From a bacterium (GTDB lineage: Bacteria > Zixibacteria > MSB-5A5 > GN15 > FEB-12), in contig JBDRNJ010000064.1 of the NCBI GenBank assembly GCA_043811375.1, forward strand, positions 72,749 through 136,748: 64,000 nucleotides of DNA, given 5' to 3'. Positions within the stretch are counted from its first letter, which is position 1. Each line of letters begins with the position of its first letter. The notes below the pieces were generated by a model, which saw only the letters and a list, made by a program, of their open reading frames with translations, searched no databases and was not told the DNA's origin. Positions 15,696-62,156 of the stretch are shown here, piece after piece. The position numbers and the translations under genes are program-made.

Positions 15696-15749
15696 ATGCT
15701 GCGTCTATGAGACGAGTTCCGCAACTGGGTGATGGAGAACGCAGCGTGA
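15696..15749 (+). repeat. att-like dispersed repeat, copy A
   Basis: atgctgcgtctatgagacgagttccgcaactgggtgatggagaacgcagcgtga matches the copies at 54767 and 62101. Confidence 0.75.
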
Positions 15750-15952
15750 AAATACGGCCCCGGCCTTACTCTCAGAATACTGTTGTGAGCTTTGAATTAT
15801 CAATGCGTATGCACTACGGGATAATAGGTGGATGTCGTTGTAAAGAAATCAAGTGCAAGCAGACAAGCAACCAGAACCAGAATACAGTACGGAAACCAAA
15901 AGACAGGTTGAGCTTAAGCTTCTCCCTGGATATCGATCGAGAGTAATAAATA

Positions 15953-16213
15953 TTACGTTACATTCACAATCACAGCAATTATCGTGAATATGATTATTAT
16001 TAAACTCCAGAGTTTCCAGCCGCCGGATTTTTCAGGTTTTTTTATCGATCTGCTGATTAAATAAAGGATAACAAAATAGCTTGGACTGTTTGATATTAAT
16101 GAATCAACTTCAATATGCAGTATCTTCTTAAATAATACCGCCATTCCAACTATACAAAAACCAGCTACTAAGGCAACTTTGATTTCATTAGACTTAAAGA
16201 AGCTTTTAAGCAT
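15953..16213 (-). CDS. Small AT-rich membrane protein
   Basis: 86 aa with about three hydrophobic segments, in DNA visibly AT-richer than its flanks. Confidence 0.55.
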   Translation of the reverse strand: MLKSFFKSNEIKVALVAGFCIVGMAVLFKKILHIEVDSLISNSPSYFVILYLISRSIKKPEKSGGWKLWSLIIIIFTIIAVIVNVT

Positions 16214-16386
16214 ATTCAGTTATCCTTATTACATGAAGCCCAATTCAGGCTGTGAAATTCAGTGTAAACTCTATAATTTCTCATTTTACAAATATAGCAA
16301 GATACAATGTTATAACAAGCCAAGATCTCTACTTATGAATTGTCTACTTGACAAGGAAGTTCACCCTACTTAGTGGCGTTGCCACG

Positions 16387-19300
16387 TTACAGCTTTCTGG
16401 CCTTCACCAGATAGAACAGCACCGGAACAATGATGAGAGTCAGGACGGTTGACGACACTAACCCACCAACCATCGGGGCCGCGATACGTTGCATCACTTC
16501 CGATCCGGTACCGTGACCGAGCATGATCGGCAGCAACGCCAGTATGGTGGTGGCTACTGTCATCAGCTTGGGACGGACTCGTTCGACGGCGCCCTCCATG
16601 ACGGCCTCTTGCAGATCGGTCAGCGAATTCAGACGCCTCTGCTCCCGGTACCTTCTGACTGCTTCCTCCAGGTAGACCAGCATGACTACTCCGGTTTCTG
16701 CCGCCAAGCCGGCCAGAGCGATGAAACCGACATACACCGCCACGGAAGTGTTGAACCCGTACAGATAGAAGAACCATATACCTCCGACCAGTGCGAACGG
16801 CAGCGACAGGATCACGATCAGGCAGTCGGTCAGATTCTTGAAGTGCAGGTACAACAGCAGGAATATGACAAACAATGTCAGCGGCACAATGACCCTCAGC
16901 TTCTCGGCTACCGCTTGCATGTTTTCATACTGTCCCGACCACAGGATACTGTAACCGACCGGAAGCGTTACTGACGCCTCGACTTCCCGGCGTGCGGTCG
17001 CGACATAGGTGCCGACATCGATGTCCTTCAGATCAACAAACACCCATGCGGTTGGTCGGGCGTTCTCGGACTTGATCATAGCAGCACCCTTGCTGAATCC
17101 GAGTGTCGCAATCTGGCCCAGCGGAACGTTGCCGCCGCCCGGCGTCGGAATCAGAACTCGGCGCATGGCTTCGGGGTTGTCCCGAAGCTCGCGGGGGTAG
17201 CGGACGTTGATCGGGTATCGTTCGCGACCTTCGACTGTCGAGGTGAAACTCATGCCGCCGATTGCAGTTTTGATAACATCCTGGACATCAGCTACAGTGA
17301 GGCCAAGAGCCGCCGCCTTGAAGCGGTCGATATCCACGTCCAGGTAGTTACCTCCGGTGACACGTTCAGCATAGGCTGACCTGGTTCCGGGCAGTGGTTT
17401 CACTGCCGTTTCGATGCGCTGCGCAATCGCGGTCAGGCTGTCCAGGTCAGGCCCCATTACCTTGATGCCGATCGGTGTTTTGATACCCGTCGCAAGCATG
17501 TCAATTCTGGTTTTGATGGGCATTGTCCAGGCGTTGGTGAGTCCTGGGAACTGGATGGCCATGTCCAGCGAATCGACCAGCATTTCCGGTGTCAGTCCGA
17601 GACGCCATTGATCTATCGGCTTGAGCATGATGGTTGTCTCCAGCATCGTAAGGGGCGCCGGATCAGTAGCAGTCTGGGCGCGACCTGCCTTACCGAACAC
17701 CCGTTCGACTTCCGGAAACGACTTAATGATGCGATCGGTCTGTTGAAGCAGTTCCCTGGCCTTGCCTACCGAGATGCCGGGCAGGGTGGTTGGCATGTAA
17801 AGCAAATCACCTTCATACAACGGCGGCATAAATTCGGACCCGATGCGGCTTAGCGGTATGAACGTGACAGCCATGATTACAATGGTTGCAAGAATGACAA
17901 TAAGTTTATGTCTCAGGGCAAAGCTGATGATCGGTCGATATAACGCGATGCTTACGCGGGAGATGGGATTACGGCTCTCCGGCCGTATCTTCCCTCTCAT
18001 AAACAGTGCGATGAGAGCTGGTATCAACGTGATTGAGAGAAGGGCCGAGGCGGCCATCGCAAAAGTCTTTGTGTAGGCCAGGGGCTTAAACAGGCGGCCG
18101 GACTGACCCTCCAGCGCCAGCACCGGCAGGAAAGAGACCGTGATGATCAGTAGCGAGAAGAATAGCGCCGGGCCGACTTCCCGGGCGGAATCAAGCACAA
18201 TCTGAAGGCGTGGTTTCTTGTCGCGATCGCGCTCCAGATGTTTGTGGGCATTCTCCACCATCACCAGTGAAGCATCGACCATGACTCCAATGGCAATGGC
18301 GATTCCTCCCAGCGACATGATGTTGGCGTTGATACCCATTAGATGCATGACCAGCAGGGACAACAGTACACCGGTGGGAAGGGTTACCATGGCGATGAGT
18401 GTCGAACGGACATGCAACAGGAAAAGAAGCGTGATCAGCATGACCACAATCATTTCTTTGACGAGCGTGTTGCGCAGGTTGCCGACAGCAGCGTCAATCA
18501 GTTGGGAGCGATCATAGACAGGGACAATCGTCACCCCGTCTGGGAGTCCGGCTGAAAGTTCCGATAGTTTCTGCTTCACGCGTCCGATCACCTCGCGGGC
18601 GTTGTCTCCCCAGCGTATGACAACGATTCCACCAACGGTCTCGCCCTCACCATCAAGTTCCGCAACCCCGCGACGAATCTCTGGACCGAACTGAATGTTG
18701 GCTACTGACGACAACAAAACGGGTGGGCCGTCTTTGGGCGAGTGTATGGGAACGTTCCGCAGGTCTTCGAGATCACCGACATACGCCTGGCTGCGCACCA
18801 TGAACTCTGTCTCGGCCAATTCCAGCAGCCGTCCTCCGACTGCGCCGGTGGACCGCTTGACAGCCATGATGATATGCTTGAGAGGGATACCATAGAACTC
18901 CAGTTTGCGAGGATCGACCTCAATCTGGTACTGGCGTACGAAACCGCCCACCGATGCGACTTCCGACACACCGGGTACGGAAGACAGTTCGTATTTCAGA
19001 AACCAGTCCTGTATCGAACGAAGTTCGGCAAGGTCATGTTGATTGGTAGTATCAACCAGTGCATACTGGTAGACCCAGCCTACCCCGGTCGCATCGGGGC
19101 CGAGTTGGGGAGATGCGTCCCCGGGAAGTCGCCCGGATACCTGCGAGAGGTATTCAAGAACGCGGCTTCGTGCCCAGTAAATGTCGGTACCGTCTTCAAA
19201 GATGACATAGACAAACGACAGCCCGAAGTATGAGAATCCTCGCACGTTCTTTGCCTTGGGTACGGCCAGAAGCGCGGTGGACAAGGGATAGGTCACCTGG

Positions 19301-19488
19301 TCCTCGACAACCTGCGGTGGTTGCCCCGGGTACTCGGTCTGGACAATGATCTGGACATCCGATAGATCGGGGATGGCATCGACCGCAATTTCACCCGCGG
19401 CATATATCCCGGCCAACAGCAAAACCGTCGTGATCGCCAGAACCATCCAGCGGTTATTGATCGAGTACTCGATAATCTTACTGGTCAT
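16387..19488 (-). CDS. cusA: Cu(I)/Ag(I) RND efflux permease
   Basis: DAIPDLSD, GPDATGVG, AIGVMVDA; Met sites LYMPTT, PLTMLET and WTMPIK match the CusA Met triad. Confidence 0.95.
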   Translation of the reverse strand: MTSKIIEYSINNRWMVLAITTVLLLAGIYAAGEIAVDAIPDLSDVQIIVQTEYPGQPPQVVEDQVTYPLSTALLAVPKAKNVRGFSYFGLSFVYVIFEDGTDIYWARSRVLEYLSQVSGRLPGDASPQLGPDATGVGWVYQYALVDTTNQHDLAELRSIQDWFLKYELSSVPGVSEVASVGGFVRQYQIEVDPRKLEFYGIPLKHIIMAVKRSTGAVGGRLLELAETEFMVRSQAYVGDLEDLRNVPIHSPKDGPPVLLSSVANIQFGPEIRRGVAELDGEGETVGGIVVIRWGDNAREVIGRVKQKLSELSAGLPDGVTIVPVYDRSQLIDAAVGNLRNTLVKEMIVVMLITLLFLLHVRSTLIAMVTLPTGVLLSLLVMHLMGINANIMSLGGIAIAIGVMVDASLVMVENAHKHLERDRDKKPRLQIVLDSAREVGPALFFSLLIITVSFLPVLALEGQSGRLFKPLAYTKTFAMAASALLSITLIPALIALFMRGKIRPESRNPISRVSIALYRPIISFALRHKLIVILATIVIMAVTFIPLSRIGSEFMPPLYEGDLLYMPTTLPGISVGKARELLQQTDRIIKSFPEVERVFGKAGRAQTATDPAPLTMLETTIMLKPIDQWRLGLTPEMLVDSLDMAIQFPGLTNAWTMPIKTRIDMLATGIKTPIGIKVMGPDLDSLTAIAQRIETAVKPLPGTRSAYAERVTGGNYLDVDIDRFKAAALGLTVADVQDVIKTAIGGMSFTSTVEGRERYPINVRYPRELRDNPEAMRRVLIPTPGGGNVPLGQIATLGFSKGAAMIKSENARPTAWVFVDLKDIDVGTYVATARREVEASVTLPVGYSILWSGQYENMQAVAEKLRVIVPLTLFVIFLLLYLHFKNLTDCLIVILSLPFALVGGIWFFYLYGFNTSVAVYVGFIALAGLAAETGVVMLVYLEEAVRRYREQRRLNSLTDLQEAVMEGAVERVRPKLMTVATTILALLPIMLGHGTGSEVMQRIAAPMVGGLVSSTVLTLIIVPVLFYLVKARKL

Positions 19489-21001
19489 GGTTTTCCTCCG
19501 GCTGGTACCTGACCAGGTTCATACCACACACTGGACATTCACCCTTGTGATCCTGGGTTACCCCACATTCGGTCATAGGGCAGACATAGACCTGATGATT
19601 GTCGGTTTCGGACAGGGGTACCAGCTTCATCCCGCACTCAGAGCAGTTACCTTCTCCGTATTGAAAAACGTTGTAATGTTCGGGCATCGGACAGGTGTAG
19701 ATGTCGTGGCCGCCGGTGGCGACAAACTCGTCAGAGTCAGGTTCGGGTGAGGCGCTGACCTGTTTGTGATCGGTATCGTGTTCTTCATGAGTGTTTCCGT
19801 GATCGTGTCCGGCCTGGTATCCTTCGGTGAGGGCTTCGCCCAGGCGTGATTCACTGTCCAGCAGGAACTGTCCTGATGTCACCACCAGTTCGTTTTCAGA
19901 GAGCCCGGAGAGGACGGCGATGTTATCATCATCTCCCACTGCTCCCGTCACGATAACTCTCGGCTCGTAGACATCATCACCCGATGCGACATACACCAAC
20001 TGTCGGACCCCGGAATTGATGACGGCAGATCTGGGGATTACCAGTCGGTTGCCCTCAAGATGGGACGCAATCGAGACCTCGGCATACATCTCAGGCATAA
20101 GTCGATAGTCGCTGTTGTCGATATCGAGGCGTATTTCCACTTGGCCGTGAGTATCGAGAAAGGGAGATATGTACGAAATCGTCGAAGTGATCTCTCTGGC
20201 TCCTGTGTTCGGCAGTACAATACTCGTCCGTTGGTCAACATGAACGAACGGGACGTCCTGCTCATAGATGTGAGCCACCACCCATACGGTCGAAAGATCA
20301 GTGATTTCATACAGTTCGGCTCCCGGCTTGAGATGGTCACCTTCGGAGACATTCTTGGAGATCACTACGCCGTTGGCGGGGGCGTGGATTGTCATAGTGC
20401 GGGTAATCTCGCCGGAAGATTTAAGACGCTCGATCTGGTCTTCGGAGATGTCCCAGTTGGACAATCGGCGGCGAGCCGCTCTTATCAGGTCGGATGCAGA
20501 CTCTCCTGATTTGACTGCTATCAGATATTCTCTCTGGGCGGCCACAAGAGCTGGAGAGTACAGTTCCAGAAGTGGTTGTCCCTGATAGACTTTCTGGCCT
20601 TCGTGATCGACAAAGAGCCGTTCCACCCAACCGTCGATCTTGAGATTGACGGTGTGCCTGTTTGGCTCGGCAATGACAACCTCGCCGAACGCATGCACCA
20701 TCCTGCTGAGCGTGCCATATTCAGCCGGTGCCGTTACAAGTCCCATGTTCTGCCTGGTGACCGGATCAATCGTGACTGATCCTGCCGCACCGGCGCCCGT
20801 TTTCTTGGGCGTCAGTTTCATCCCGCAGATCGGGCAGTATCCCGGTTCATCGGAGATAATCTCCGGGTGCATACCGCATGTGTACTGTTGGACTTCGGCA
20901 CTCTCACCAGACGACAGTTGATCCTCGCCGTGCGGCATGATGAGATATGCGAGGCCGAATCCTGCGGCCAAAGCTGCTATTATGATTATTGCTGTTTTCA
21001 T
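19478..21001 (-). CDS. cusB: CusB-type periplasmic adaptor with N- and C-terminal heavy-metal-binding domains
   Basis: YTCGMHP..CPICGM; LYSPALVAAQREY; GQFLLDSES; two extra CPM..CxxCGM repeats and a His-rich linker. Confidence 0.92.
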   Translation of the reverse strand: MKTAIIIIAALAAGFGLAYLIMPHGEDQLSSGESAEVQQYTCGMHPEIISDEPGYCPICGMKLTPKKTGAGAAGSVTIDPVTRQNMGLVTAPAEYGTLSRMVHAFGEVVIAEPNRHTVNLKIDGWVERLFVDHEGQKVYQGQPLLELYSPALVAAQREYLIAVKSGESASDLIRAARRRLSNWDISEDQIERLKSSGEITRTMTIHAPANGVVISKNVSEGDHLKPGAELYEITDLSTVWVVAHIYEQDVPFVHVDQRTSIVLPNTGAREITSTISYISPFLDTHGQVEIRLDIDNSDYRLMPEMYAEVSIASHLEGNRLVIPRSAVINSGVRQLVYVASGDDVYEPRVIVTGAVGDDDNIAVLSGLSENELVVTSGQFLLDSESRLGEALTEGYQAGHDHGNTHEEHDTDHKQVSASPEPDSDEFVATGGHDIYTCPMPEHYNVFQYGEGNCSECGMKLVPLSETDNHQVYVCPMTECGVTQDHKGECPVCGMNLVRYQPEENHDQ

Positions 21002-22269
21002 CTTGACGCCTCCTGGGCATCGGACGCCAGTTCACGAAGTGCTGCCGTCTGCTGATGGTACTGTTTGAGAAGTTCAAGTCTTTCCAACTCGACATTCATT
21101 ACGTCCAGTTGAGCTGAGAGGAAGCCGTTGAAATCAACCTGACCGACTTCGTAAGCGACCTGCGCAGCTTCGCCGGCTGCTTGTGCCTGAGGAAGGATTG
21201 TCAGTTCGTATTGCTCAACGCGTTCTCGCAAGGACTGTAAAACCAGCACGATATCTGCAACCTTTCGCTCGACACTGTTGATAATCGCGTGTTCGTCGGC
21301 CTGTGCCGCCAGATACGATTGCCTTGCGGCTGCCGTCTGATTTCTCTGACGTGTGAAAAACCAGACCGGCAGGTTCATGCCAATCTTGAATGACAGGAAA
21401 TCCTCACCGGAAACGGCGTCCATGGGGATATCCTTCCGAATACGATAATCGACTCCAACTGTCAGGTTGGGCCAGTATTCGGATTTTGCCAGGTCCACCT
21501 TCCGTTTCGCCACCGCGGAACCTATTGACGCCCTCGCGAAGATAGGGTTAGACAATTCAGCGGGTATTTCAACATATTCCTGCGGAATCGGCGGGAGTAC
21601 ATGTGTTAATGAAGCGTCGATTGTCCCGGGATTGTCGGTAAGCCGGGCGAGCTGAACCAGTGCTGAGGAAGCTTTTTGCCGGGCCATTAGTATGCGGTTT
21701 TCGATTCTCGCTTTGGATGTTTCTGAACGAAGGACATCCTGCAATGAGCCGTCACCATTGGAATATCTGGTCTGAGCGACCTGGATGATATTCTCGACAA
21801 GCTGCATACTCTCGGTAAGAACAGTTTCGACCAAAGTCTGGTGAGAGTAGTCGTAATAGTAATGCACCACCTGTCGGATGATGTTGTTCCTTCGAGCGGC
21901 CAGGTCCGTAGCCTTGATATCAGAATCCAGCCGGGCGATATCGGCCTTGGCAGACAATTTCCCGGGCCATGGAACACTCTGAGACAAACCGAGCGACACA
22001 CCGCTCATGGGGGTTTCGTCGAAACTCATCGATGTTCGCGGTAGATTGAGAATTGCCGCCGAAAGTTTTGGGTCCGGCAGCCAACCGGCGAAATTGGCCC
22101 CGTATTCGGCCGCGCTGTGTCTGTATTCAGCAGCATGAATCGCCGGATGGCGCTCCAGCGCAACCATGATCAGAGAGTCAAGTGTATGATTATCGCTGAT
22201 ATCATCCGCCCAGCCTGTCGGCGCCAGTGCCAGGCAGACCACAAAACAGACTATTGTATTCTTATCCAC
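20998..22269 (-). CDS. TolC/CusC family outer membrane efflux protein
   Basis: Signal peptide, LPDP, SQSVPWPGKL, AYEVGQVDF; overlaps cusB. Confidence 0.9.
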   Translation of the reverse strand: MDKNTIVCFVVCLALAPTGWADDISDNHTLDSLIMVALERHPAIHAAEYRHSAAEYGANFAGWLPDPKLSAAILNLPRTSMSFDETPMSGVSLGLSQSVPWPGKLSAKADIARLDSDIKATDLAARRNNIIRQVVHYYYDYSHQTLVETVLTESMQLVENIIQVAQTRYSNGDGSLQDVLRSETSKARIENRILMARQKASSALVQLARLTDNPGTIDASLTHVLPPIPQEYVEIPAELSNPIFARASIGSAVAKRKVDLAKSEYWPNLTVGVDYRIRKDIPMDAVSGEDFLSFKIGMNLPVWFFTRQRNQTAAARQSYLAAQADEHAIINSVERKVADIVLVLQSLRERVEQYELTILPQAQAAGEAAQVAYEVGQVDFNGFLSAQLDVMNVELERLELLKQYHQQTAALRELASDAQEASR

Positions 22270-22348
22270 TATACAGACTCCATCATTGGTTGGAGGTTAC
22301 AAAAGTGGGGTATAATATACCCCAGGGAACGATCTAAGAAAAGGATTA

Positions 22349-22756
22349 TCAGATAAGATAAGATGCGTTCAGAACGTAGAGAGGCGGCCCATGAGCCGAT
22401 TGCCGGCTGGTTCGGGCGGTTTGAGAGGACCCTGTCTCAATCACCGTGACATTCGAAACAGCCAACATCACGGCAGCAGATGTTTCCGGATTGGTAGTTG
22501 GACGCAGTTGAGCCTCGAGCGGGACTTCCGTTTTTGTCGCTGGAGCAGAGACACTACAGCAACAGGAACTCTCCAGCGAGAGCGCTTCACCGATCGGAGC
22601 CTCGCCTTGCCCATAGCTACAACCACAGCAACAGGACTTGGAACAATCGTCACTCACGTAGTTCGACTGGTACGCCTGCAAGCAGGACGCTGCCGCAACA
22701 ATCAGGACAGTTGCCAGTACCGAAATGAGTCTGAGTCTGTTGCTTATTCTATACAT
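22349..22756 (-). CDS. Cys-rich exported small protein heading the cus operon
   Basis: N-terminal hydrophobic segment, CSKSCCCGC and SCCC clusters, C-terminal HGPPLY...YLI. Confidence 0.7.
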   Translation of the reverse strand: MYRISNRLRLISVLATVLIVAAASCLQAYQSNYVSDDCSKSCCCGCSYGQGEAPIGEALSLESSCCCSVSAPATKTEVPLEAQLRPTTNPETSAAVMLAVSNVTVIETGSSQTARTSRQSAHGPPLYVLNASYLI

Positions 22757-22815: not shown

Positions 22816-23044
22816 ATTAAGACACTCCCGCAAGATAACATAATGCAAACAAATGAGTTACGGCTCCTGCGAAGTCTCCGGTTGGCGATGGAGCTGCTCG
22901 TTGTCAGGCAGTTCTGCATAGACAGTAGTTAATGCCAATATAACCGCAAAGTTAAATGATTTAGTGACTTCACCACTGCCAGGTATTCGTGACCTCCCCT
23001 TTAGATACTTGCCAACAACGCCATCACTTCGGTACCATGACTCA

Positions 23045-23722
23045 ATGAAAACGTCCGACCTTCTCCGTGGTTGCTACCTCTGCCGGGACCTTGACCAGAG
23101 GGAACTGGAAGCACTTGAGGAAATCGTCTCAGTTCGGAGAGTGAACAGGGGAGAGGTACTCTTTCTTCAGGGCGACCACGCAACGGGCTTCTATGTTCTC
23201 CTGGACGGCTCGATCCGGATTTACAAAGCCTCACCGGACGGCAAAGAGTACACCCTGCATCATATCCGAGCGGGGCAGATGTTCGCCGAGGCGGCCGTTT
23301 TTGGTGACTCAACCTTCCCGGCCAATGCCGTCGCCAGCGAGGTCTCCACAGTGGCCTTTTTCCCAAAAGACCGGTTCATTCGCCTGATACAAGATTCACC
23401 GCAAATCTCGTTGAAGATGATCGCTGGTCTGGCCGGCTTTGTACGCGAATTCAATCAGCAGATCGAAGACCTCTCGCTTAAGGAAGTCCCGGCTCGGTTG
23501 GCCGGTTACCTGCTCAGGTCGCTGAAAGAAACCGGCGATATGATAATTACTCTCAGCATCAGTAAGGCTGAATTGGCCCGTTCACTCGGCACGACAAGCG
23601 AGACCCTCTCTCGTAACCTTACGAAATTCAGAGACTCAGGCGTCATTTCCGGCGACGGCCGGGAGATCACCGTGGTCGACCAAGCCCAATTGGAAAAAAT
23701 CGCCGACGGCCAAAAAATCTGA
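23045..23722 (+). CDS. Crp/Fnr family regulator (DNR/HcpR-like, no FNR Cys cluster)
   Basis: cNMP-type domain (GQMFAE, FPANA); HTH LGTTSETLSR. Confidence 0.92.
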   Translation: MKTSDLLRGCYLCRDLDQRELEALEEIVSVRRVNRGEVLFLQGDHATGFYVLLDGSIRIYKASPDGKEYTLHHIRAGQMFAEAAVFGDSTFPANAVASEVSTVAFFPKDRFIRLIQDSPQISLKMIAGLAGFVREFNQQIEDLSLKEVPARLAGYLLRSLKETGDMIITLSISKAELARSLGTTSETLSRNLTKFRDSGVISGDGREITVVDQAQLEKIADGQKI

Positions 23723-23728
23723 TATCTC

Positions 23729-23742
23729 TTGATCTGAATCAA
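23729..23742 (+). promoter_or_regulatory. FNR/DNR-type box TTGAT-ctga-ATCAA
   Basis: Perfect consensus between the regulator gene and the ferredoxin gene. Confidence 0.8.
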
Positions 23743-23822
23743 AGCCTTATTCCATCCACTTTCCGATCTTCTTCTCAGAAAGTAGATAGAAAATGACCTC
23801 GATACCCCAGGAGGTAAGAAAA

Positions 23823-24620
23823 ATGGCCATTCGGAATATTGTCAAAATCGATGAAGAACTTTGTGACGGCTGCGGCGATTGCGTAACCGCTTGTGCCGAA
23901 GGCGCCATCCAGATTATTGATGGTAAAGCTAAACTTGTAAGTGACACCTACTGTGACGGCTTGGGCGCCTGTCTGGGCGACTGCCCGCAAAGCGCGATCA
24001 CAGTCGAAGAGCGGGAAGCATCGGATTTCGACGAAGCAGCGGTTGCCCAACATTTGGCCAAACTAAAGCAAGACACTCAGCCCGGTCAGGTATTGTCGGA
24101 ATCACACCATGCAAAAGGATCAGACACGCTTCCGTGTGGATGTCCGGGATCGGCAATGCAACAATTGAATCCCACAGCCCAGACTGCACCGGCGTCCCCA
24201 ACCGACCTCTCCCAGCCGGTCATGCCCTCTCAGTTGGGCCACTGGCCGATACAACTGATGCTGGTGCCACCGCATGCGCCGTTTCTGAAAAACGCCGATC
24301 TGCTGATCTGCGCCGACTGCGTACCGTTTACCGTGCCAGACTTTCATTTCCGGTATCTGACCGGCCGCTCCCTGGTCGTTGGCTGTCCCAAGTTGGACGA
24401 CCTCCAGCATTACCACGACAAACTCAAGGCTATATACCAGGAAGCGGCGCCGCGTTCTATCACCGTGCTCAAGATGGAAGTCCCTTGCTGCAACGGCATC
24501 GCTCAGGCAGCCGTCCAGGCGCGTAACGAGGTAGCTCCGCATATCCCGGTGGAAGTCCATACAATTGGTGTGCGTGGCAACATTGTCGATCGCAAAACGC
24601 CGTGTGAGTCGGCAGTCTGA
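23823..24620 (+). CDS. 4Fe-4S ferredoxin domain iron-sulfur protein
   Basis: CDGCGDCVTAC and CDGLGACLGDCP; GCPG, WPIQL, ADC, GCPKLD, MEVPCC. Confidence 0.9.
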   Translation: MAIRNIVKIDEELCDGCGDCVTACAEGAIQIIDGKAKLVSDTYCDGLGACLGDCPQSAITVEEREASDFDEAAVAQHLAKLKQDTQPGQVLSESHHAKGSDTLPCGCPGSAMQQLNPTAQTAPASPTDLSQPVMPSQLGHWPIQLMLVPPHAPFLKNADLLICADCVPFTVPDFHFRYLTGRSLVVGCPKLDDLQHYHDKLKAIYQEAAPRSITVLKMEVPCCNGIAQAAVQARNEVAPHIPVEVHTIGVRGNIVDRKTPCESAV

Positions 24621-24630
24621 AATCCAAGCG

Positions 24631-24885
24631 ATGCTTCGCCAACAGGTACAAGAGAAACCGACCGCCGAACAACAACCATGGTTGAAATCGACCCGCCCGA
24701 AACCTGTTGTATGGCTGGCGGAGAATGTTCGGTCGGTAGTGCAGATCAGTTTTGCGCTTCTCTGTATCTGGAAAAGTATAGAGGGATACATTCAATACTA
24801 CACCAACTATGAAAGCTATAGTCACCCGACCAGCACATCGGAGATTCGTGGTCTCGACAGGGACACGTCTCAAGCGAGCGAGTAG
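24631..24885 (+). pseudogene. Possible remnant of a YccM/NapH-like membrane polyferredoxin N-terminus
   Basis: VRSVVQISFALLCIW..IE..Y..YE resembles the first TM of such proteins; the ORF ends early with no Cys motifs. Confidence 0.3.
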
Positions 24886-24912
24886 GGTCGGCGTCAGTTC
24901 ACGCATTTAATC

Positions 24913-24953
24913 TTGACACCAATCGATAACCGGACTAAATGTAGCGTTATAAT
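24913..24953 (+). promoter_or_regulatory. Class II Crp/Fnr promoter: TTGAC-acca-ATCGA box plus TATAAT
   Basis: Box at 24913..24926 and TATAAT at 24948..24953; spacing fits a site centred near -41.5. Confidence 0.6.
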
Positions 24954-24975
24954 CAAATCTTAGAAAGGAGCAGGA

Positions 24976-26277: not shown

Positions 26278-26342
26278 GGCTGGACCGGGTCGCTGGAGTT
26301 GTGTATATTTGATCGAGTTTCGAAGACCATAACAGGAGTTGT

Positions 26343-27680: not shown

Positions 27681-27689
27681 GAGGTCGTC

Positions 27690-31569: not shown

Positions 31570-31570
31570 G

Positions 31571-48258: not shown

Positions 48259-48329
48259 ATCCTTCCATATCAACTGTATGTCGTCAAACAAAGTGAACAT
48301 GACGGTGTTGCAAGTTATTATGCGGACCA

Positions 48330-50324: not shown

Positions 50325-50325
50325 A

Positions 50326-52323: not shown

Positions 52324-52409
52324 CTTACCAGCAATACTTTAACCGTCTCGAAACCTGCGGCCAGGCCATGCGGTTACGCTCGTGACGTCTTAAGGTAGCA
52401 CTAAGTTCC

Positions 52410-53924: not shown

Positions 53925-54766
53925 GTTTACCAGTCCAACATCAGACACTAACTGCTTCAAGTTTCAGACCTTATTTGGAATATGAAGGATTGTGAAAGTC
54001 CTGAATTCTATCCGCAGAGCTCCCCCTGCGGATAATTCCATTTTTTGGAATACAAACTACTTAGTAACGAAGCAGGATTTTTCGCCACAAATAGCTTAAA
54101 ACCCTCAAGGGATGTTCACTGAAATTTACAGGCTGGTTGTGAGGTTTTTGCTGACGAATATTACGCCTGCATTTTCCAAAATCACGAAAGTCCGTTAGCA
54201 TCAGGATGCTCTTTTCTTGCCTCTACCCGTGTATCATTGCATAAAATCCATGCTGCAATATTGATTACTAATATATATCACGCAGTAGGGTTGTCAACAG
54301 ATTTCGTTTATTTTTGACCTTCTCCCAAAAAACTGGACCAGTCCAGGTTTCAGAATTCAACTGAATGCGGTTTTGGAGGGAGGACGGCACAATGCAGAAG
54401 AAACGGTTAGCAGACCAGCGGATCACACCCACCGTGTCCCATGATTCCGGATGACAAGAGCTGCACAACTGCGATAGCCGGCGCTTCAGCCTGGTTCTTA
54501 CTCAAGGCCACTGCAAGCCAATCCTCGCTATTGAATCACATTCCGACGCCGTGAGATTGTGGTTATAAGTGAGAAGTGTGGTACAGTTCTGATGTGGGAT
54601 TGGGCGGTCCTTGTGAGATGTCATTACAGGGTAGAGCGGACTCAGCTCTCGTCTGACTCTGACAGGATCTGTCAGCCGTAGAATCACGAGAGACTTTTAA
54701 CTGCAGGATTTCGATATCGAAATTATGGTAAACCTGCAAGTTATTGAATTATTGCCGGTTACGGAA

Positions 54767-55327: not shown

Positions 55328-55897
55328 ATGTCCAAAACTGACGCGGAATTATGGCAGGAGGTTCTTGCGGGAAGCGCTGCCGTATGGAGCGAGCTTGTCA
55401 GGCGATATCAGCCTTTGGTATATGCAGTCAGTATCCGCGCCGGACTATCTGCGGGAGACGCAGCTGATTGCTTCCAGCAGACCTGGGTAAAGCTCTATGA
55501 GAATCGCGAGGATATCCAAAACCCGTCCCGTTTATCGGCCTGGCTGGTCACAACCGCCAAACGCGAGGCCCTGCGTCTTCGTCGCCAAGCGGAGCGTAAT
55601 CGCGGAGAGCTCCTTGAGGGAGAGGCGGTTGACCTGAACCCATTGCCTGATGAGGAGTTGGCAATGGTGGAGCGCCAGATGCAACTGGAGATTGCCATAA
55701 AGGAACTCGCACCACGATGCCGCCAGTTGATTGAACTCTTTTTCTTTGCTCCGGAGAAGCTTACCTATGAACAGATTGCCTCTACTCTCGGCATGTCAAG
55801 CAACAGCCTCGGACCCTTTCGGCGTCGTTGCCTGAAACGCCTCAACGAGATTCTTGTGAGAAACGGTTTTTTAGGGGCACGAAATGACCTTCGGTAA
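55328..55897 (+). CDS. ECF RNA polymerase sigma factor
   Basis: DCFQQTW, WLVTTAKRE, TYEQIA, SLGP.RRRCL. Confidence 0.92.
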   Translation: MSKTDAELWQEVLAGSAAVWSELVRRYQPLVYAVSIRAGLSAGDAADCFQQTWVKLYENREDIQNPSRLSAWLVTTAKREALRLRRQAERNRGELLEGEAVDLNPLPDEELAMVERQMQLEIAIKELAPRCRQLIELFFFAPEKLTYEQIASTLGMSSNSLGPFRRRCLKRLNEILVRNGFLGARNDLR

Positions 55898-55905
55898 GCT
55901 CTGTA
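55879..55905 (+). promoter_or_regulatory. Putative cognate ECF promoter ACGAAAT-N13-CTCTGTA, copy 1
   Basis: Boxes and spacing identical to 60824..60850. Confidence 0.65.
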
Positions 55906-55926
55906 TGTTGGAAGGTTAAAGGAGAA

Positions 55927-56502
55927 GTGGTGGCAAAGCATTTGAGTCGACAAGAGTTGATTAAGGCTGCACGGAAACGTCCATTCGTTTTGGACGGCCA
56001 CCTGAAGTCATGCACGGAGTGCCGGGACGCAGTGATCCTGCTGAAAGCATTCGACGTCTCCGGTTGCCTGCCCCTTCCCGATGCTCCCTCGCCCTGGGTG
56101 GAGCGAGCCGCCTCGCTTGCTAAGAATGTGGGAGTGTTGGAGGGAGTAAAGACCATAATAGCGAAACTGACCTTCGATTCATGGGCTGTTCCACGACCGA
56201 TTGGAGTCCGGGGCCAGAGCTCTCTGGGCGACCGCCGTATTCGTTTTGAGTCCGAGAGCATGGTTTTTGACCTCCGAGCAGAGCGTAAGACTACCGGGTG
56301 GGCATTTGTGGCTCAGGTCACAGCGGAGGGTCCGACGGTTGCTTCCACGATTCTTGAAATCGGGAAAAGAAAGTTACATGCTGACCCTGGCGGTCTTTTT
56401 CAGTGGACAAGCAGCAGACCGCTGACCGGCGTGACTATTCGTTCCGGCAAAACGATTGTTGTAATTCCGGAGATGGTATGGAAGCGACCTCGATCCAGTT
56501 AG
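55927..56502 (+). CDS. Cytoplasmic ZAS-type putative anti-sigma factor
   Basis: HLKSCTEC (HxxxCxxC), no TM segment, LTFDSW..GVRG..RRIRF C-terminal domain. Confidence 0.75.
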   Translation: MVAKHLSRQELIKAARKRPFVLDGHLKSCTECRDAVILLKAFDVSGCLPLPDAPSPWVERAASLAKNVGVLEGVKTIIAKLTFDSWAVPRPIGVRGQSSLGDRRIRFESESMVFDLRAERKTTGWAFVAQVTAEGPTVASTILEIGKRKLHADPGGLFQWTSSRPLTGVTIRSGKTIVVIPEMVWKRPRSS

Positions 56503-59204
56503 CCGTCAAACGATTCCTGAGCAAAGGAGTTATCAGTGGGATCGCCGAGGACGATCTCGCAGCGAACTGCGATAACCTGATCAGGGAGACGGCGCGGCGG
56601 TCTCTCAAGCAGGCACTGACCCTGGCCAAACGGTTTGTCTATAGGTCAGAGATTCGTAACGGCCCGCTGGCTCTGTCAGCCTACCGGGCCTTGGCTCGTG
56701 TCACCCATATGAGCGGCGCTCACGCCGACGCGTTGGACGCCTACTTAAAGGCCCGACAGCTAGCACTTCGGGACCCGCTCGTACGCTCCCGCATTGATCG
56801 GGCACTGGTAGACGTTTATATGTACTTTGGCGACTTCGACAAGGCCAAGCGCTCGGCACAACGGGCAATCCTCGCCTTTGGTCGGTTGAGTGCAGAATCC
56901 GACCTCGCACAGACACGCGTTAATTATGCCAACTTGCTCCATCGGCAGGACCGCCACAGAGACGCGGAACGGCTATATCGACAGGCAGCTGAGTATTTCG
57001 AGACCACTGACAATCATCTGGCCACAGTGCGATGTTACTACAACCGAGCTAACACACTGGTCCAGCTCTTTGATTTCACCAGTGCAGAAGAACTCTATGA
57101 AAAGGCGGCGCGAGTTTACGAAGCGGAAGGATATACGCTTGATGCTAATGACGCGCGTTACGGTCTGGCATGGCTGCGGATGCTGGACGGCGAGTTTCAC
57201 ATTGCACTACTTGAACTGTCTGCCTGTGAGAAGGTCTACCGAGAGGCAGGTGCTCTCCGGGGAGAGGCGCTCTGTATGCTCGACCGCGCTGAGGTCTACC
57301 TTGGGCTGGGTCTATATGCTGACGCCCGTGAGGCCAGTCGGGTCGCCGAACGAATGTTTTTGCGCCTGAAACTTCGCTATGAACGAGCGAAGTCATCGCT
57401 TTATAGGGCTCAGGCAGCCTTTGCTCTGGGGGCGAAGCGTGAGGCACGCACTGCTCTGGAACGTGCCAGGAAGGGCTTCGGGGCTGAGAAGAACCGTGGC
57501 TTCCTGGGTGCAGTTCATTTGCTGGCAGCCGATATGGAAGGGAAGAACGAGGCCCGAAGGAATAGAGAATTAAGGTTGGCTCGAACCAGATTTGCCCGAG
57601 CACAGTTGCCTCTTTGGCAAGCTGTGTGTGACTTGAAAGAAGCCGCCGATCCGACGCGAGCTCGGGCTGTTTTGGCACGACTTAACAATAATGGTGCCGT
57701 CCATCGGGTGCCGCACCTCTATGCCATTTGGCAGACCGCGTCAGGTGACTACAAATTCCGACAGGGTGATCACCCAGCGGCGCGTTGCCACTGGCAAAAC
57801 GCCGCCGATCGGCTTGACGCAGTGCGTGCCCAACTTCCCCCAGTGGAGCTACGGACTGCTTACGCTCGAAAACAGAGTTCGCCTCACGCCCGGCTGATCG
57901 CTTCAGAAATGGACCACGACCCCATGCTTGCGGCGGTTTGGTCGGAGAGGTATAAGACGGCTGGTGTCTGGTCGCAGATCTCCCGGTCCGTCCTGAACCA
58001 GCCGACACGGCAGAAAGCGGAAGAGAGCTTGCACTCCCTGGCGCGCCGCGTAGCGGCCCTGGCGAATCAGATCGGAGGATACTATGGTGAGCGGGGCTTG
58101 TCCGCTCAGACAAGTCACAGAACCCTCTCAAGGTGGCAGAATCAATTGCGCGAAGAACTAATAGCTCTCGAGAAGAACAACGGTGGCAGAGTGGAGGCCA
58201 CAGAAATGCTGGCGCGCGACATACAGGTTGTTTCTCATCGCCTTCCCGTTGTTCAGTTTCACGTGGGAGATGATGAAATAATCGCCTTTGTCCACGACAG
58301 GGGTGAGACTTCGCTCCGCACGCTCAAGCACGGTCGCAAACGAGTCGATCTGGCCATGCGACGCTGGCGATATATTCTCGAAAGCGAGTTGCTTGTCGGT
58401 CATCTTGGTCACGTGAAAGTTTTGGATGCGGAACGGGCTGTCTGGCAGGAGTTGGGCGATTGGCTGTGGGCTCCGCTGGAGGTAAGGAGTGACTCTCCGG
58501 CGGTGTTGATGCTGCCTGAAGGGGAGTTGGCCAATCTGCCGTGGCAGGCCCTCATTGTCGAGGGTAAACCACTGGTGGAACGTCATCAATTCGTGCTTGC
58601 CCCCAGTCTCAGGCATTACAATGCTTCACGCTCGATTCAGGTCAGATCAGACAAAGTCGTGATCTTTAGAGGGAAGGCTGAGAGACTTCCCTATGTAGAT
58701 CATGAACTGGAAGTCCTGGCTGACCTCGCTCAGGGTGCGGCCACTACCAAAAGCCCCTGTCGGCGAGAAGATTGGCCCTCGCACGGGGAATTCCGAGTAT
58801 GGCACTATGCCGGGCACACGGTCTTGCGTTCCGATAACCCATTCTACTCATCCCTGGTTTTGGAAGACGGGCCGCTCTTTGCAGTCGATTTTCGTCTGAA
58901 GGAATGTCAGGTGGGGCTGGTGTCGCTGGCGTCATGCCGCTCCGGGGAGCAGATCACCATGCCTGGCGAGGAAGCTACCGGGCTTGTGCGGTCGTTACTG
59001 GAGATGGGAGCTCGCAATGTCGTAGCAGGACACTGGCCGGTCTCCGACGAAACCACCGCTCTCTGGATGGAATCGTTTTACGGCCGGTTTTTTGAGGGAG
59101 ATAATGTAAGTGGGGCAGTACGTCACGCTGCCCGCACAGTCCGCGAAGTCCATCCATCCGCTTATCACTGGGCGGCTTTCTCCATTTTTGGCGTGGGTGA
59201 ATAA
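56478..59204 (+). CDS. TPR-CHAT (caspase-like) protease
   Basis: Long TPR array; LPEGELANLPWQAL; His in HYAGH; Cys in SLASCRSG; GHWPVSD; HWAAF. Confidence 0.92.
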   Translation: MEATSIQLAVKRFLSKGVISGIAEDDLAANCDNLIRETARRSLKQALTLAKRFVYRSEIRNGPLALSAYRALARVTHMSGAHADALDAYLKARQLALRDPLVRSRIDRALVDVYMYFGDFDKAKRSAQRAILAFGRLSAESDLAQTRVNYANLLHRQDRHRDAERLYRQAAEYFETTDNHLATVRCYYNRANTLVQLFDFTSAEELYEKAARVYEAEGYTLDANDARYGLAWLRMLDGEFHIALLELSACEKVYREAGALRGEALCMLDRAEVYLGLGLYADAREASRVAERMFLRLKLRYERAKSSLYRAQAAFALGAKREARTALERARKGFGAEKNRGFLGAVHLLAADMEGKNEARRNRELRLARTRFARAQLPLWQAVCDLKEAADPTRARAVLARLNNNGAVHRVPHLYAIWQTASGDYKFRQGDHPAARCHWQNAADRLDAVRAQLPPVELRTAYARKQSSPHARLIASEMDHDPMLAAVWSERYKTAGVWSQISRSVLNQPTRQKAEESLHSLARRVAALANQIGGYYGERGLSAQTSHRTLSRWQNQLREELIALEKNNGGRVEATEMLARDIQVVSHRLPVVQFHVGDDEIIAFVHDRGETSLRTLKHGRKRVDLAMRRWRYILESELLVGHLGHVKVLDAERAVWQELGDWLWAPLEVRSDSPAVLMLPEGELANLPWQALIVEGKPLVERHQFVLAPSLRHYNASRSIQVRSDKVVIFRGKAERLPYVDHELEVLADLAQGAATTKSPCRREDWPSHGEFRVWHYAGHTVLRSDNPFYSSLVLEDGPLFAVDFRLKECQVGLVSLASCRSGEQITMPGEEATGLVRSLLEMGARNVVAGHWPVSDETTALWMESFYGRFFEGDNVSGAVRHAARTVREVHPSAYHWAAFSIFGVGE

Positions 59205-59216
59205 GGAGAGTAACAT

Positions 59217-60644
59217 ATGCAATCTGAGTCAATGGCAACTTCACTGAGGCTCTTGTTTCTGGCGGTTGCGCTGATCCTATGGCCCTTGATATCGCTCCAT
59301 GCCGGCAACCAGACTGGCAACTTCAAGGTGGAAGAACTTGTGTGCAGAATGGAGCTAGGCTTCAGCATTGACACAGTCAACAATGCCTACGGAACGACAG
59401 TCAAAGGTTTTGTACAGCAAACCAGTTGTTACCTGCTTGGAACCCCGTCGGGCCAGAACGCAGAGAGTCTTGCCGTAGAGATCAGTGAGCTGACGGGAGT
59501 TCAATACTGTGGTGCCAATTATTATCTCGACGCGCCTGAACCTTTTCAGCTGAGCCAACCCTTTCTGGATGTCTACGGCACGGGTGACTACCAGACACAG
59601 TCGGCGGCCAGTGTCTTGAGTCTGACCACGGTCCACACAATCACCGAAGGCAGCGGTGTCAAGGTGGCCGTAATCGACTGCGGGGTGAATCTCGATCATC
59701 CGGAGTTTGTCGCGAGGTCCGGCGGAGTGTACTCGGGGTGGGATTTTGTCGATGGTGACTCTATTGCCAACGATGAACCGGGAGGAGTTGGCTCCGGCCA
59801 CGGTACGTTTGTCGCAGGTGTTGTCAGATTGGCGGCGCCGGGTTGCGACATTTATGCCTACCGCGTGCTCGATACCCTCGGCCGAGGGGACGGATACACT
59901 GTCACAGAGGCTCTCTTGCAAGCGATTGAAGACAGCTGCAAGGTGGTCAATCTGAGTCTTGGTATGGTCGGTCGACATGATGCTCTCGATGATGCCCTGA
60001 AATACGCCGAAAGCCAGGATATCACCGTCGTTACATCTGCCGGCAATGACTCAACGGAGATTGACTTGGTGTTCCCGTTTCCTGGGAAAAAGGCATCGTG
60101 CCTGACAGTCGCGGCTCTCGATTCTTTGAATATCAAAGCTGATTTCTCTAATTATGGGTATAAGGTGGACATCTGCGCTCCGGGCACTCAAATCTATAGT
60201 CCCTTTCTGGACACTTCTTATGCCTGGTGGAATGGGACGAGCTTCGCGGCGCCCTTCGTTACCGGTCTGGCGGCGCTGATATATTCTGTCGATTCAATGT
60301 TCACTTGTGAAGAGGTTGACTACATCATAAGCGAAACGGCGACAGACATTGACTTTCTTAATCCCGGCATGGAAGGTAAGCTTGGTACTGGTTTAGTCAA
60401 TATGGTTGCCGCCCTTGAAATGGTTACCAGTCTGTTGTGCGGCGATGTTGATGCCTCTGGCGACGTCACCGTTTCAGATCTGACCTATTTGATTGACTAC
60501 CTCTTCCGCGGTGGAGCAGCACCGTACCCGCTACTGCGCACTGGTGACGTTGACAGCACCTGTGACGTGAATGTCGGAGACGTGACGTATCTGGTAGCCT
60601 ACTTGTTCTTAGGCGGACCCGCTCCCTGCCAAGGTAGTCCGTAA
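59217..60644 (+). CDS. Secreted S8 subtilisin-like protease with C-terminal dockerin-like domain
   Basis: Signal peptide; IDCG, HGTFVAG, SAGN, GTSFAAP; GDVD..VSDLTYLIDYLF motif repeated twice. Confidence 0.93.
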   Translation: MQSESMATSLRLLFLAVALILWPLISLHAGNQTGNFKVEELVCRMELGFSIDTVNNAYGTTVKGFVQQTSCYLLGTPSGQNAESLAVEISELTGVQYCGANYYLDAPEPFQLSQPFLDVYGTGDYQTQSAASVLSLTTVHTITEGSGVKVAVIDCGVNLDHPEFVARSGGVYSGWDFVDGDSIANDEPGGVGSGHGTFVAGVVRLAAPGCDIYAYRVLDTLGRGDGYTVTEALLQAIEDSCKVVNLSLGMVGRHDALDDALKYAESQDITVVTSAGNDSTEIDLVFPFPGKKASCLTVAALDSLNIKADFSNYGYKVDICAPGTQIYSPFLDTSYAWWNGTSFAAPFVTGLAALIYSVDSMFTCEEVDYIISETATDIDFLNPGMEGKLGTGLVNMVAALEMVTSLLCGDVDASGDVTVSDLTYLIDYLFRGGAAPYPLLRTGDVDSTCDVNVGDVTYLVAYLFLGGPAPCQGSP

Positions 60645-60823
60645 ACACACGACAGTCTCTGATAGAGGCTGGCTGTCGCAACGCGAATGGCCGGTCGTCA
60701 GCCATTTGGTCCTCACGCGGTCGGCTGTATCTGCCTCCGGTGTTGCTGCCTTCAGCAGGTCTTATTTGCCTCTCTTACCATACTAATACGGGTAGCGATA
60801 AAGATTTCGCTCTTTTCACGTGA

Positions 60824-60850
60824 ACGAAATCTACGGCAACATCCTCTGTA
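60824..60850 (+). promoter_or_regulatory. Putative cognate ECF promoter ACGAAAT-N13-CTCTGTA, copy 2
   Basis: About 70 nt upstream of the lipoprotein gene; identical boxes to 55879..55905. Confidence 0.65.
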
Positions 60851-60921
60851 GGTCGAAAGCTGATTTCTAGAAAACCGCCGTTAGTACAACGGCTTGTAAA
60901 AACCGTAAAGGAGGTAGAAGT

Positions 60922-61866
60922 ATGATGCAGAGGAGAAAAGGTCTCCTGGTGTTTCTGCTGGGAGGGCTGGTGGCTGCCATCAGTGTTGGCTGCTCCAGCG
61001 AAAGCCCGTTAGCACCAATCAGTAGCCCTATCACGCAAGAAGCGAGAGATGGCTCTGGAGATCCCTCGTTGTCGGCGGGCAATATTCAGTTTGATTCCCG
61101 TGTGGCTACAATCGATCTGGCCGAGAGGAAGTTGACGTTTACGGGCGCAAGCTACGTTGCTATTGCCGCTGAGGACTGCGAGATCGTCCGCTTGGACGGT
61201 GGGACGGTAACACCGATCCTGTTCAGCGATATCCAGGTCGGCGACTCGGCACGGGTCTGCGGGATTCTGCAGTCCGACAGTGAAGTTCTTGCCAACAAAA
61301 TTCGGATTTTCGCAGAGTCTGAGTGCCCCGACTATGATGTTGCATTCCGGGACACTATCGCAACCATCGACTACGCGGCAGGCTCTTTCACGGTAACAGG
61401 CCGGTCCGAAGTCATCCTCGTGGATGACAACACAGTGATATGGGGGCACACTTCGCAGGCTCTTTCTGGTGGTGGTGGCAACGGCGGTGAAGGCAATGTT
61501 GTCAAAGGCATGAGGATCTACTACGAATTTACGGATTTGGCGGTAGGCCACGTTGTGGAAGTAAGAGCCGATATTGTAAGTCTTGACACGTTGCTGGCGG
61601 TTTCCATTAAAGTGGCAAACTGCAGTTTCAAGAAAAGCGTGGAATTCAGTGCCTATCTCGCCTCGGTTGATGTTCCTGCGCGGATTGTTACCTTTGACGG
61701 TCTACCCTGGATCGCGATGGTTTGCCCTCAGGCAGCACTCATAGATTTGGACGGTCAGCCACTAACTCTGGCGGACTTTGCTTCCGGTGATTTTGTGGCT
61801 GTGAAAGGATTCCCGCTCGAAGCGGACTCATTGTTCGTTTGTCTGATGGAGAAGATTGAACCCTGA
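60922..61866 (+). CDS. Lipoprotein with three DUF5666-like OB-fold repeats
   Basis: Lipobox SVGC; repeated ..ID....TF.G...F.D..VG..V.V.G unit. Confidence 0.75.
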   Translation: MMQRRKGLLVFLLGGLVAAISVGCSSESPLAPISSPITQEARDGSGDPSLSAGNIQFDSRVATIDLAERKLTFTGASYVAIAAEDCEIVRLDGGTVTPILFSDIQVGDSARVCGILQSDSEVLANKIRIFAESECPDYDVAFRDTIATIDYAAGSFTVTGRSEVILVDDNTVIWGHTSQALSGGGGNGGEGNVVKGMRIYYEFTDLAVGHVVEVRADIVSLDTLLAVSIKVANCSFKKSVEFSAYLASVDVPARIVTFDGLPWIAMVCPQAALIDLDGQPLTLADFASGDFVAVKGFPLEADSLFVCLMEKIEP

Positions 61867-61946
61867 TTGCCGCTTAGCTCTATTTGACGCGATCGCCAGG
61901 ACATTTCTCCAACATTGGCGTTGCGTTACCAACGCGACTTACTGAC

Positions 61947-61976
61947 ACGGGTGCGGGTTTTTTTACCCGCACCCGT
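61947..61976. terminator. Perfect hairpin, probable terminator
   Basis: acgggtgcgggt-T6-acccgcacccgt. Confidence 0.65.
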
Positions 61977-62100
61977 AATTGCTCACATTTAGGTCTCAGT
62001 AATCGGGGGAAGAGAGAATCATCAACACATGTGCGAGAGTTCTATCCACGGGTAGCTCATACATGACATAATAGGCTGCCGAACAGCCACTTACTTGGAT

Positions 62101-62156
62101 AGGCGGGGCTACGAGACGATTTCCGCAACTGGGTCATCGAAAATGCAGCTGCCTGA
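62101..62156 (+). repeat. att-like repeat copy F
   Basis: aggcggggctacgagacgatttccgcaactgggtcatcgaaaatgcagctgcctga, reading LRDDFRNWVIENAAA*. Confidence 0.8.

Follow-up and report, generated by a model that had tools for sequence, protein, structure and literature searches.

Introduction

Among the closest described systems to the locus reported here are the ssrA islands of Dehalococcoides, which lie in tandem behind one tDNA, a gene of the transfer RNA (tRNA) type (McMurdie et al. 2011, PMC3146451). In the parts of that report on which we draw, the serine recombinase DsiB, of ~540 amino acids (aa), is encoded by a gene whose 3' end overlaps the att site; 15 islands, half of the total, are without an integration module; and the authors suggest that dsiB is perhaps intact on the circle alone (PMC3146451). 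Large serine recombinases (LSRs) were found in 27 of 937 tycheposons of Prochlorococcus, according to the sections cited here (bioRxiv 10.1101/2020.12.28.424599), and the Islander paper states, in its portion cited here, that serine recombinases were not known to target tRNA genes (PMC4383910).

In this study, we have analysed the final 64 kb of contig C64 (JBDRNJ010000064.1) of a Zixibacteria genome (GCA_043811375.1; 3.56 Mb in 92 contigs, 95% complete); this whole stretch of 64,000 nucleotides is called the window. A sequence-only reading had proposed that a repeated motif divides it into cargo blocks, an integron-like accretion of hybrid att scars. Very probably, genomic islands have been stacked by LSRs one behind another at a tRNA gene, most likely tRNA-Asp(GTC), with the window as the outer part of the stack; the motif would be the severed end of the recombinase gene itself. 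Throughout, C denotes a contig of the window's genome (G000), G a genome, L a locus, P a recombinase protein and X a sequencing run.

Results

Co-oriented junctions of three arm types

A scan of the window for GCGG-N4-TACGAGACGAGTT, with up to 3 mismatches allowed and 100 shuffles as control, gave exactly six matches, all on the + strand (15698, 45569, 48322, 48777, 54769 and 62102). Shuffled windows gave a mean of 0.12 matches, and none of the 100 reached six. The six co-oriented copies of the sequence-only reading are thus recovered, and each is, as it had said, intergenic or at a gene end. They are real, but they do not form a single set: to the right of a GC the junctions sort into arm types, two among these six copies (A, E and F; B, C and D), with left halves that differ between copies, and two junctions of a third type had been missed.

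The type-1 arm (A, E, F) reads RD(E/D)FRNWV..AA/TA-stop, the type-2 arm (B, C, D) is a common stretch of 140-170 nt reading DEFL, and the type-3 arm (A0, A2) reads RPxxHSPQT... Type-3 junctions were detected through the natural tails of database recombinases and a hidden Markov model built from 39 such arms, which matches the window at 14659 (E 2.5e-13) and 15754 (E 4.9e-13); the match at 14659 means that the array begins to the left of A. In total, the window holds eight junctions, all co-oriented, listed here with the recombinase remnant and the insertion sequence (IS) ends that adjoin them:

14659..14760, + strand: junction A0, type-3 arm; the most distal junction found, absent from the sequence-only reading
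15698..15749, + strand: junction A, type-1 arm, DEFRNWVMENAA-stop
15754..15856, + strand: junction A2, type-3 arm; 56 bp after A across a near-empty interval, absent from the sequence-only reading
45235..45585, + strand: broken C-terminal part of an LSR of the C28 type, continuous with junction B
45569..45712, + strand: junction B, type-2 arm, RDEFL..; left half equal to the end of the C28 LSR at tRNA-Asp in 10/12 nt
45712..45798, + strand: degenerate end of a multicopy IS, adjoining junction B
48275..48299, - strand: second IS-like end, inverted relative to 45774-45798
48322..48492, + strand: junction C, type-2 arm; 92% identity to B
48777..48920, + strand: junction D, type-2 arm; 16/19 aa equal to the C-terminus of the intact LSR P0014
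54769..54823, + strand: junction E, type-1 arm, WRGVRDEFRNWVIHNSTA-stop
62103..62156, + strand: junction F, type-1 arm, RDDFRNWVIENAAA-stop; left side one base shorter

Contig C64 stops 1.9 kb past junction F, where the window also ends. Given their 92% identity and the IS-like ends at their flanks, B or C may be a duplicate and not a separate integration. The IS at 45712..45798, which we take to be IS481-like, has degenerate ends that flank the extracytoplasmic function (ECF) sigma block, facing outwards, and about ten contig ends carry the same IS. Near-empty intervals of 50-80 bp, in which the next junction follows a tail immediately, occur in the window (15698-15754) and in relatives (L066; G053, 29790-29850; G074, 174430-174520). 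By eye, and uncounted, we also observed a loose ~25-bp palindrome (TAAGTCGTT..AACGACTTA-like) or a terminator-like hairpin 5-15 bp to the left of the GC at E, C and F and at many junctions in relatives.

In the rest of the genome, the motif is confined to few places. Type-1 and type-3 arms occur solely on C64 (five) and C31 (four), all on the + strand, and the type-2 arm occurs three times on C64 and as one weak copy on C15. All 28 multi-junction loci in metagenomes are co-oriented, and this distribution is not that of the randomly oriented genome-wide repeat which the sequence-only reading had named as its own alternative. Database records carrying the motif are mostly titled Zixibacteria, the rest being unassigned or loosely labelled assemblies. 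Rfam families gave no match in the window, by which a known RNA family is rejected.

Arrays of relatives at tRNA-Asp

Read as its reverse complement, the 3' end of tRNA-Asp(GTC) has GCGG-N5-ACGAGAC in common with the motif. When the scan was extended to relatives, as the sequence-only reading had suggested, the type-1 pattern was found in 34 of 61 genomes, with none for a reversed-pattern control; across the phylum, it is present in 64 of the 285 genomes searched. Ten relative arrays, five of them selected for the motif alone and five for an LSR match, run co-oriented into tRNA-Asp (G015, G021, G023, G028, G030, G033, G034, G040, G053 and G074), and among the mapped regions that hold a tRNA next to the junctions one array sits at tRNA-Asn. 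A further check covered 18 genomes: tRNA-Asp was without a match in 4, lay on a different contig in another 4, and one genome (G028) had been counted before; in the remaining 9, the motif and the tRNA-Asp 3' half lie on one contig, in 7 of them within 27 kb and in the predicted orientation.

The tRNA that anchors the window is most likely a tRNA-Asp(GTC) on the minus strand, which would lie beyond the contig end. As alternative targets, tRNA-Gln and tRNA-Gly were rejected, since the spacing fits tRNA-Asp and the arrays of relatives end there. No tmRNA was found in the mapped regions, and moeA, considered as a conserved flank of the tRNA, was uninformative (a tRNA within 1.5 kb in 1 of 29 loci, a tRNA-Ser).

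Other loci of the same genome show related arrangements. A second array (C31:10955-34064) holds two type-1 and two type-3 arms, tRNA-Asp-like, and ends at an LSR that reads into tRNA-Gln(CTG), which suggests element mixing between tRNA targets. On contigs C27, C28 and C32 there are two pairs of tRNA-Val and tRNA-Asp genes; a tyrosine integrase comes after one pair and an LSR after the other, and C32 bears two further junctions with a 25-bp tRNA-Asp copy.

Recombinases that read into the tRNA

The genome has nine LSR genes, and the last codons of most of them read into a tRNA on the opposite strand. Those on C6, C28, C31, C42, C69 and C70 run, in three frames, into His, Asp, Leu, Glu, Gln and Arg tRNAs or tRNA-like ends. 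In G021, an intact LSR of 490 aa (P0001) has its end inside tRNA-Asp; P0001, P0014 and P0242 all contain Resolvase, Recombinase and zinc-ribbon domains. Related LSR loci end in tRNA-Asp in 13 of 30 cases (10 of 12 among the best matches), the others ending in Asn, Gln, Ser or Arg tRNAs, in partial tRNA copies, in a type-3 arm or at a contig end. In all six arrays where an intact LSR of the G021 type abuts tRNA-Asp, the next detected junction outwards is of type 1.

Intact serine recombinases that end in an arm, which the sequence-only reading had proposed to look for, do exist: P0014 ends in a type-2 arm, and P0008 and P0012 end in a type-3 arm. As for type 1, a fragment at L104, 58% identical to the full LSR P0242, is in frame with a complete type-1 tail; a region search on the P0014 tail returned five proteins, none with a type-1 tail. 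The recombinase remnant that had been described as fused to copy B is a broken LSR end, with one stop and one frameshift, and it resembles (31% over 140 aa, E 9e-11) a third LSR type that ends in tRNA-Asp on C28.

Arms of different types part from the tRNA sequence directly after GC or GCGG, which places the probable crossover at about tRNA positions 72-74, near the GC at 73-74. A few junctions retain the TTG of the tRNA ahead of ACGAGAC, so that the exact crossover position is not fixed.

Coding signature of the severed tail

Tail statistics were taken from 93 non-redundant type-1 arms, and only bases beyond the searched pattern were counted. A stop follows 5-9 codons past the Trp in 89 of the 93, and it may be TAA (45), TGA (40) or TAG (7). 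Tail lengths differ in steps of a whole codon, with 6 codons in 49 tails and 7 in 34; entropy by codon position is 0.97/0.64/1.55, and conservation ends at the stop. Single-base codon changes were synonymous in 98 cases vs 41 non-synonymous, with 19% synonymous expected, these being counts over related arms and not independent events. By all these measures, the type-1 arm evolves as protein. Type-3 tails show a weak periodicity (1.32/1.31/1.53).

The type-1 tail ends in Ala-Ala in 61 of 92 arms, an ending that neither type-2 nor type-3 tails have; the host tmRNA tag ends in YAMAA. A terminal Ala-Ala is read by ClpX, and ClpX is present in the genome. The tail may be a switch of enzyme stability.

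Cargo between the junctions

The contents of the blocks, which had been given as metal efflux and redox genes, an ECF cassette, a small basic protein, glnA with gatE and gatD, and a sigma-CHAT module, were recovered by a Pfam domain search:

14802..15560, - strand: AP_endonuc_2 TIM-barrel gene, in the 1-kb block A0-A
16387..22756, - strand: Cus-like heavy-metal RND efflux genes, cargo of A2-B
22964..38982, both strands: Crp regulator, Fe-S, multiheme cytochrome, DUF255 thioredoxin, two-component and CCG-domain genes, cargo of A2-B
39007..44954, - strand: second heavy-metal RND efflux set, cargo of A2-B
46005..48258, + strand: TPR protein, ECF sigma factor and zf-HC2 anti-sigma, block B-C
48511..48756, - strand: small Lys-rich open reading frame (ORF), block C-D; homologues in the tRNA-Asp arrays of G074 and G151
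48930..53960, - strand: gatD, gatE and glnA, block D-E
55328..61866, + strand: ECF sigma, partner, CHAT-TPR, S8 peptidase and DUF5666, block E-F
62331..63692, - strand: DEAD-box helicase, after F

The blocks hold from 1 to ~22 genes, on both strands, and reach up to 30 kb. For one block, the boundaries coincide with junctions in relatives too, a point on which the sequence-only reading had staked its case: in G021 and, inverted, in G047, both of genera other than the window's, the sigma-CHAT block E-F is bounded exactly by two type-1 junctions, and in G023 it lies beside one. Three public runs (X1, X3, X4) also yield this block at ~95% identity, unaccompanied by the ECF and gatDE blocks, from contigs that show presence and not absence; in X1 and X4 it carries a type-1 arm with different flanks. 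Homologues of the DEAD helicase, which is probably further cargo, lie in or beside the tRNA-Asp arrays of G074, G042 and G151 and adjoin tRNA-Asn in G068. Among the loci compared, no homologue was found for A0-A, B-C or the redox genes of A2-B. On these comparisons, and on those of gatDE below, E-F, C-D, the DEAD helicase and the gatDE genes of D-E behave as foreign or mobile cargo.

In the case of gatDE, matches to gatE were found in 123 of the 151 genomes of the order, nearly always in single copy, and the window's gatE is the sole copy found in its genome. Its product averages 44% to the GatE of relatives, which average ~57% mutually (two outliers at 45-48%), and the window's GatD averages 64% to those of relatives, which average ~80% mutually; the RecA control, at 88% on average, is in line with the rest and no outlier. 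Given this deficit in identity and the ordinary RecA, the only gatDE found in the genome is probably foreign. The best database matches of GatD are one near-self at 97% and then others at 77-83%, mostly unnamed, those named including Myxococcota, Polyangia, Deltaproteobacteria, Eisenbacteria, Acidobacteria and one Zixibacterium. The gatE neighbourhoods of 20 relatives held no glnA and no tRNA-Asp, and gave one weak motif-like match. That the cassette holds an essential gene was rejected, since glnS scores over the cut-off in the genome.

The archaeal-type GatDE pair (window 48930-52323) is lineage-wide in these bacteria; the window's genome has glnS and a gatB search without a match over the cut-off, and G021 and G074 have gatB with no gatE or glnS match. 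The region 48510-48640, of the small Lys-rich ORF, has a high summed depth in all four sequencing runs mapped and is therefore common in those communities. After E, a gene fragment on the - strand (54840-55230), presumably dockerin-like, has an end that matches a stretch just past a G021 junction. Further to the left, the window contains a tandem duplication of ~850 bp (3900-5280) with two RRM genes bearing Gly/Arg-rich tails.

Discussion

We propose that each island would enter as a circle by means of an LSR crossing over at or next to the GC of tRNA positions 73-74, and that the tRNA would stay whole while older islands are pushed outwards. In each junction, the left half would then stem from the end of the island that was there before, and the right half from the attP arm of the arriving island. 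As the recombinase gene would read across attP, integration would cut off its last codons, and the motif would be these codons, kept at the island's far side: type 1 in A, E and F, type 2 in B, C and D, and type 3 in A0 and A2. The integrated enzyme would end at xRG-stop or in ~10 tRNA-derived residues; the tail, which in type 1 has ~14 residues with Ala-Ala at the end, would be found on the enzyme encoded by the circle. Most islands have since lost their recombinase and would persist as cis-mobilisable cargo. The hybrid att scars of repeated tandem serine-recombinase integration, which the sequence-only reading had put forward, thus find support in the relatives, the cognate LSRs and the recurring cargo; what it had overlooked is the target, the 3' tip of a tRNA, and the nature of the arms as severed recombinase ends.

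Several observations weigh against this interpretation. Neither a tRNA nor an intact LSR was found in the window, and C64 shares no overlap with either tRNA-Asp contig, end overlap and BLAST having both given no link to another contig. A full-length LSR with a complete type-1 tail was not found among the 120 homologues listed, and an open frame of at least 100 codons enters just 1 of 101 type-1 junctions, which implies that displaced LSR genes are almost always gone. The motif lies 116-125 kb from tRNA-Asp in G135 and far from it in G064, as do second motif copies in G028 and G097; the same arms are also seen at tRNA-Gln (C31), at tRNA-Asn (second locus of G015) and beside tRNA-Thr (L072). Circular junction reads, suggested by the sequence-only reading, were looked for, and no circle or empty site was seen in IMG/VR or the sequencing runs: IMG/VR circles gave 0 matches to the type-1 pattern, and none of 6 sequencing runs, all with small shares, contained this strain. 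A joint in run X1 (62138 -> 55314, with 34 letters on the short side) was rejected as a circle; we attribute it to the upstream junction of the organism concerned, which resembles F more closely than E.

How the blocks came to be without recombinases can be seen in another way, compatible with the scars. In a working cassette system, recombinase-free circles made of att arms and cargo would be captured at the tRNA by an LSR acting in trans, and we consider this conceivable, if doubtful. It would agree with the 4 of 10 tRNA-Asp arrays that have no LSR next to the tRNA (G015, G023, G053, G034), with the long upstream frame missing at 100 of 101 type-1 junctions, with intervals between junctions of 48 bp to 33 kb (median 6 kb, n=56) and with the sigma-CHAT block being found apart from the ECF and gatDE blocks in X1, X3 and X4, between differing flanks in X1 and X4. 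However, the coding signature of the arms is only sensible if each circle also bore an LSR gene, some junctions (B; G015; G034; L239) come after broken ends of LSR genes, many arms are decayed, and no circle has been seen. Moreover, the decay of elements into cis-mobilisable ones (CIMEs), together with co-transfer of whole stacks, gives the same pattern, to go by the portions of PMC5704250 cited here. An array hung on another tRNA (Gln, Asn or Thr), or moved off its tRNA by rearrangement, is improbable. The arms at tRNA-Gln, tRNA-Asn and near tRNA-Thr mentioned above, the DEAD cassette adjoining tRNA-Asn in G068, and the fact that the two tRNA-Asp genes of the genome are each already flanked by other integrases would fit it; yet the left half of B derives from an LSR type that ends in tRNA-Asp on C28, and type-2 arms in tRNA-anchored arrays are seen solely at tRNA-Asp (G040). 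C28 breaks off in a transposase fragment, so that the array there can extend onto a further contig.

LSR binding sites are expected to place elements such as AACT and ACGAGAC in just this manner, and it might be argued that the right arm is conserved purely as recombinase DNA-binding motifs, the peptide being incidental: ACGAGAC is common to arm and tRNA, and AACT lies 6 bp further out in attP than in attB. Third-position variation, three stop codons at one place, tails that lengthen by whole codons and the loss of conservation right after the stop make this quite unlikely. Least credible of all is that the copies are a dispersed repeat, a MITE or an IS scar with no tie to site-specific recombination. 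In favour of this are the IS-like ends adjoining B and C and a 92% identity suggestive of local duplication; against it, the copies are restricted to two contigs plus the weak one on C15, the multi-junction loci are co-oriented without exception, and the arms are continuous with LSR C-termini.

The LSR-built island stack at tRNA-Asp, which we thus prefer, can be extended into a broader proposal that we offer tentatively and do not expect to hold in full. The circle form of the enzyme might carry an ssrA-like Ala-Ala tag for ClpXP and so regulate itself, integration removing the tail, so that half-life or direction would change with no dedicated directionality factor. The enzyme in residence might also excise and re-insert recombinase-free blocks between internal junctions, a serine-recombinase counterpart of the integron, and the gatDE of the lineage might have been replaced in this way. 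If the Ala-Ala tail is a degron, it would offer a direct test of the DsiB idea, with an enzyme that differs between circle and chromosome. From a wider point of view, the locus shows a route of gene gain in an uncultured phylum, with the type-1 arm marking a hot spot. Island finders based on tRNAs overlook such loci, and an LSR that lands at a conserved tRNA tip without breaking the gene is a candidate insertion tool.

Comparison with known systems

Integrons consist of IntI, attI and attC, and our array resembles them in that recombinase-free gene blocks are added at one end. Unlike integrons, it has no IntI and no attC hairpin or GTTRRRY core, and its multi-gene blocks, on both strands, are of up to 30 kb. 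The statement that no intI or attC is involved is confirmed: none of 13 matches to the IntI profile (TIGR02249) is over the cut-off in the genome, 95% complete; no tyrosine integrase was found among the 57 ORFs of the window; of 88 GTTRRRY matches, none is within ~150 bp of a junction; and fold z-scores for a hairpin lie between -1.86 and +1.69 at all six sites, none better than shuffles. Integron sites were accordingly rejected; nor are the blocks mostly single, co-oriented genes. The description "integron-like" fits the outcome but not the mechanism; the array matches known tandem island accretion.

In this regard, the accretion of integrative and conjugative or mobilisable elements (ICEs, IMEs) with CIMEs is alike in its sequence of integration, decay to an integrase-less att-flanked element and re-integration with hybrid internal sites, and differs in that, within the portions cited here, the tRNA-targeting examples use tyrosine integrases and the serine IMEs disrupt protein genes (PMC5704250). 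As in our arrays, newcomers among the tycheposons push older elements off the tRNA, leaving partial tRNAs and integrase fragments, but those elements mostly use tyrosine integrases with ~40-nt tRNA copies, and the cited sections describe no split recombinase gene (bioRxiv 10.1101/2020.12.28.424599). In mycobacteriophage BPs, attP also lies inside a gene and integration strips a C-terminal degradation tag; there, in the account cited, the split gene is the repressor of a three-gene phage switch (PMC3694055), whereas here it is that of a serine recombinase, for which degradation is putative.

Although coverage of the literature searched is incomplete and absence from print is not shown by it, no description of this tRNA-Asp system was found there. 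The DsiB islands are, along with CIME accretion, the closest known system, and our locus shares with them tandem stacking, probably behind one RNA gene, and a recombinase 3' end overlapping the att site. As far as the cited parts of the report go, the DsiB islands have a tmRNA target, a T-loop crossover, a 20-bp direct repeat and a six-gene module with DsiA (PMC3146451), whereas the system of the window has, most likely, the tRNA-Asp tip as its target, a shared core of a few bases and a severed tail conserved as protein and ending in Ala-Ala. Island stacking of this kind is already known; here, the scars also encode a short conserved tail of the recombinase.

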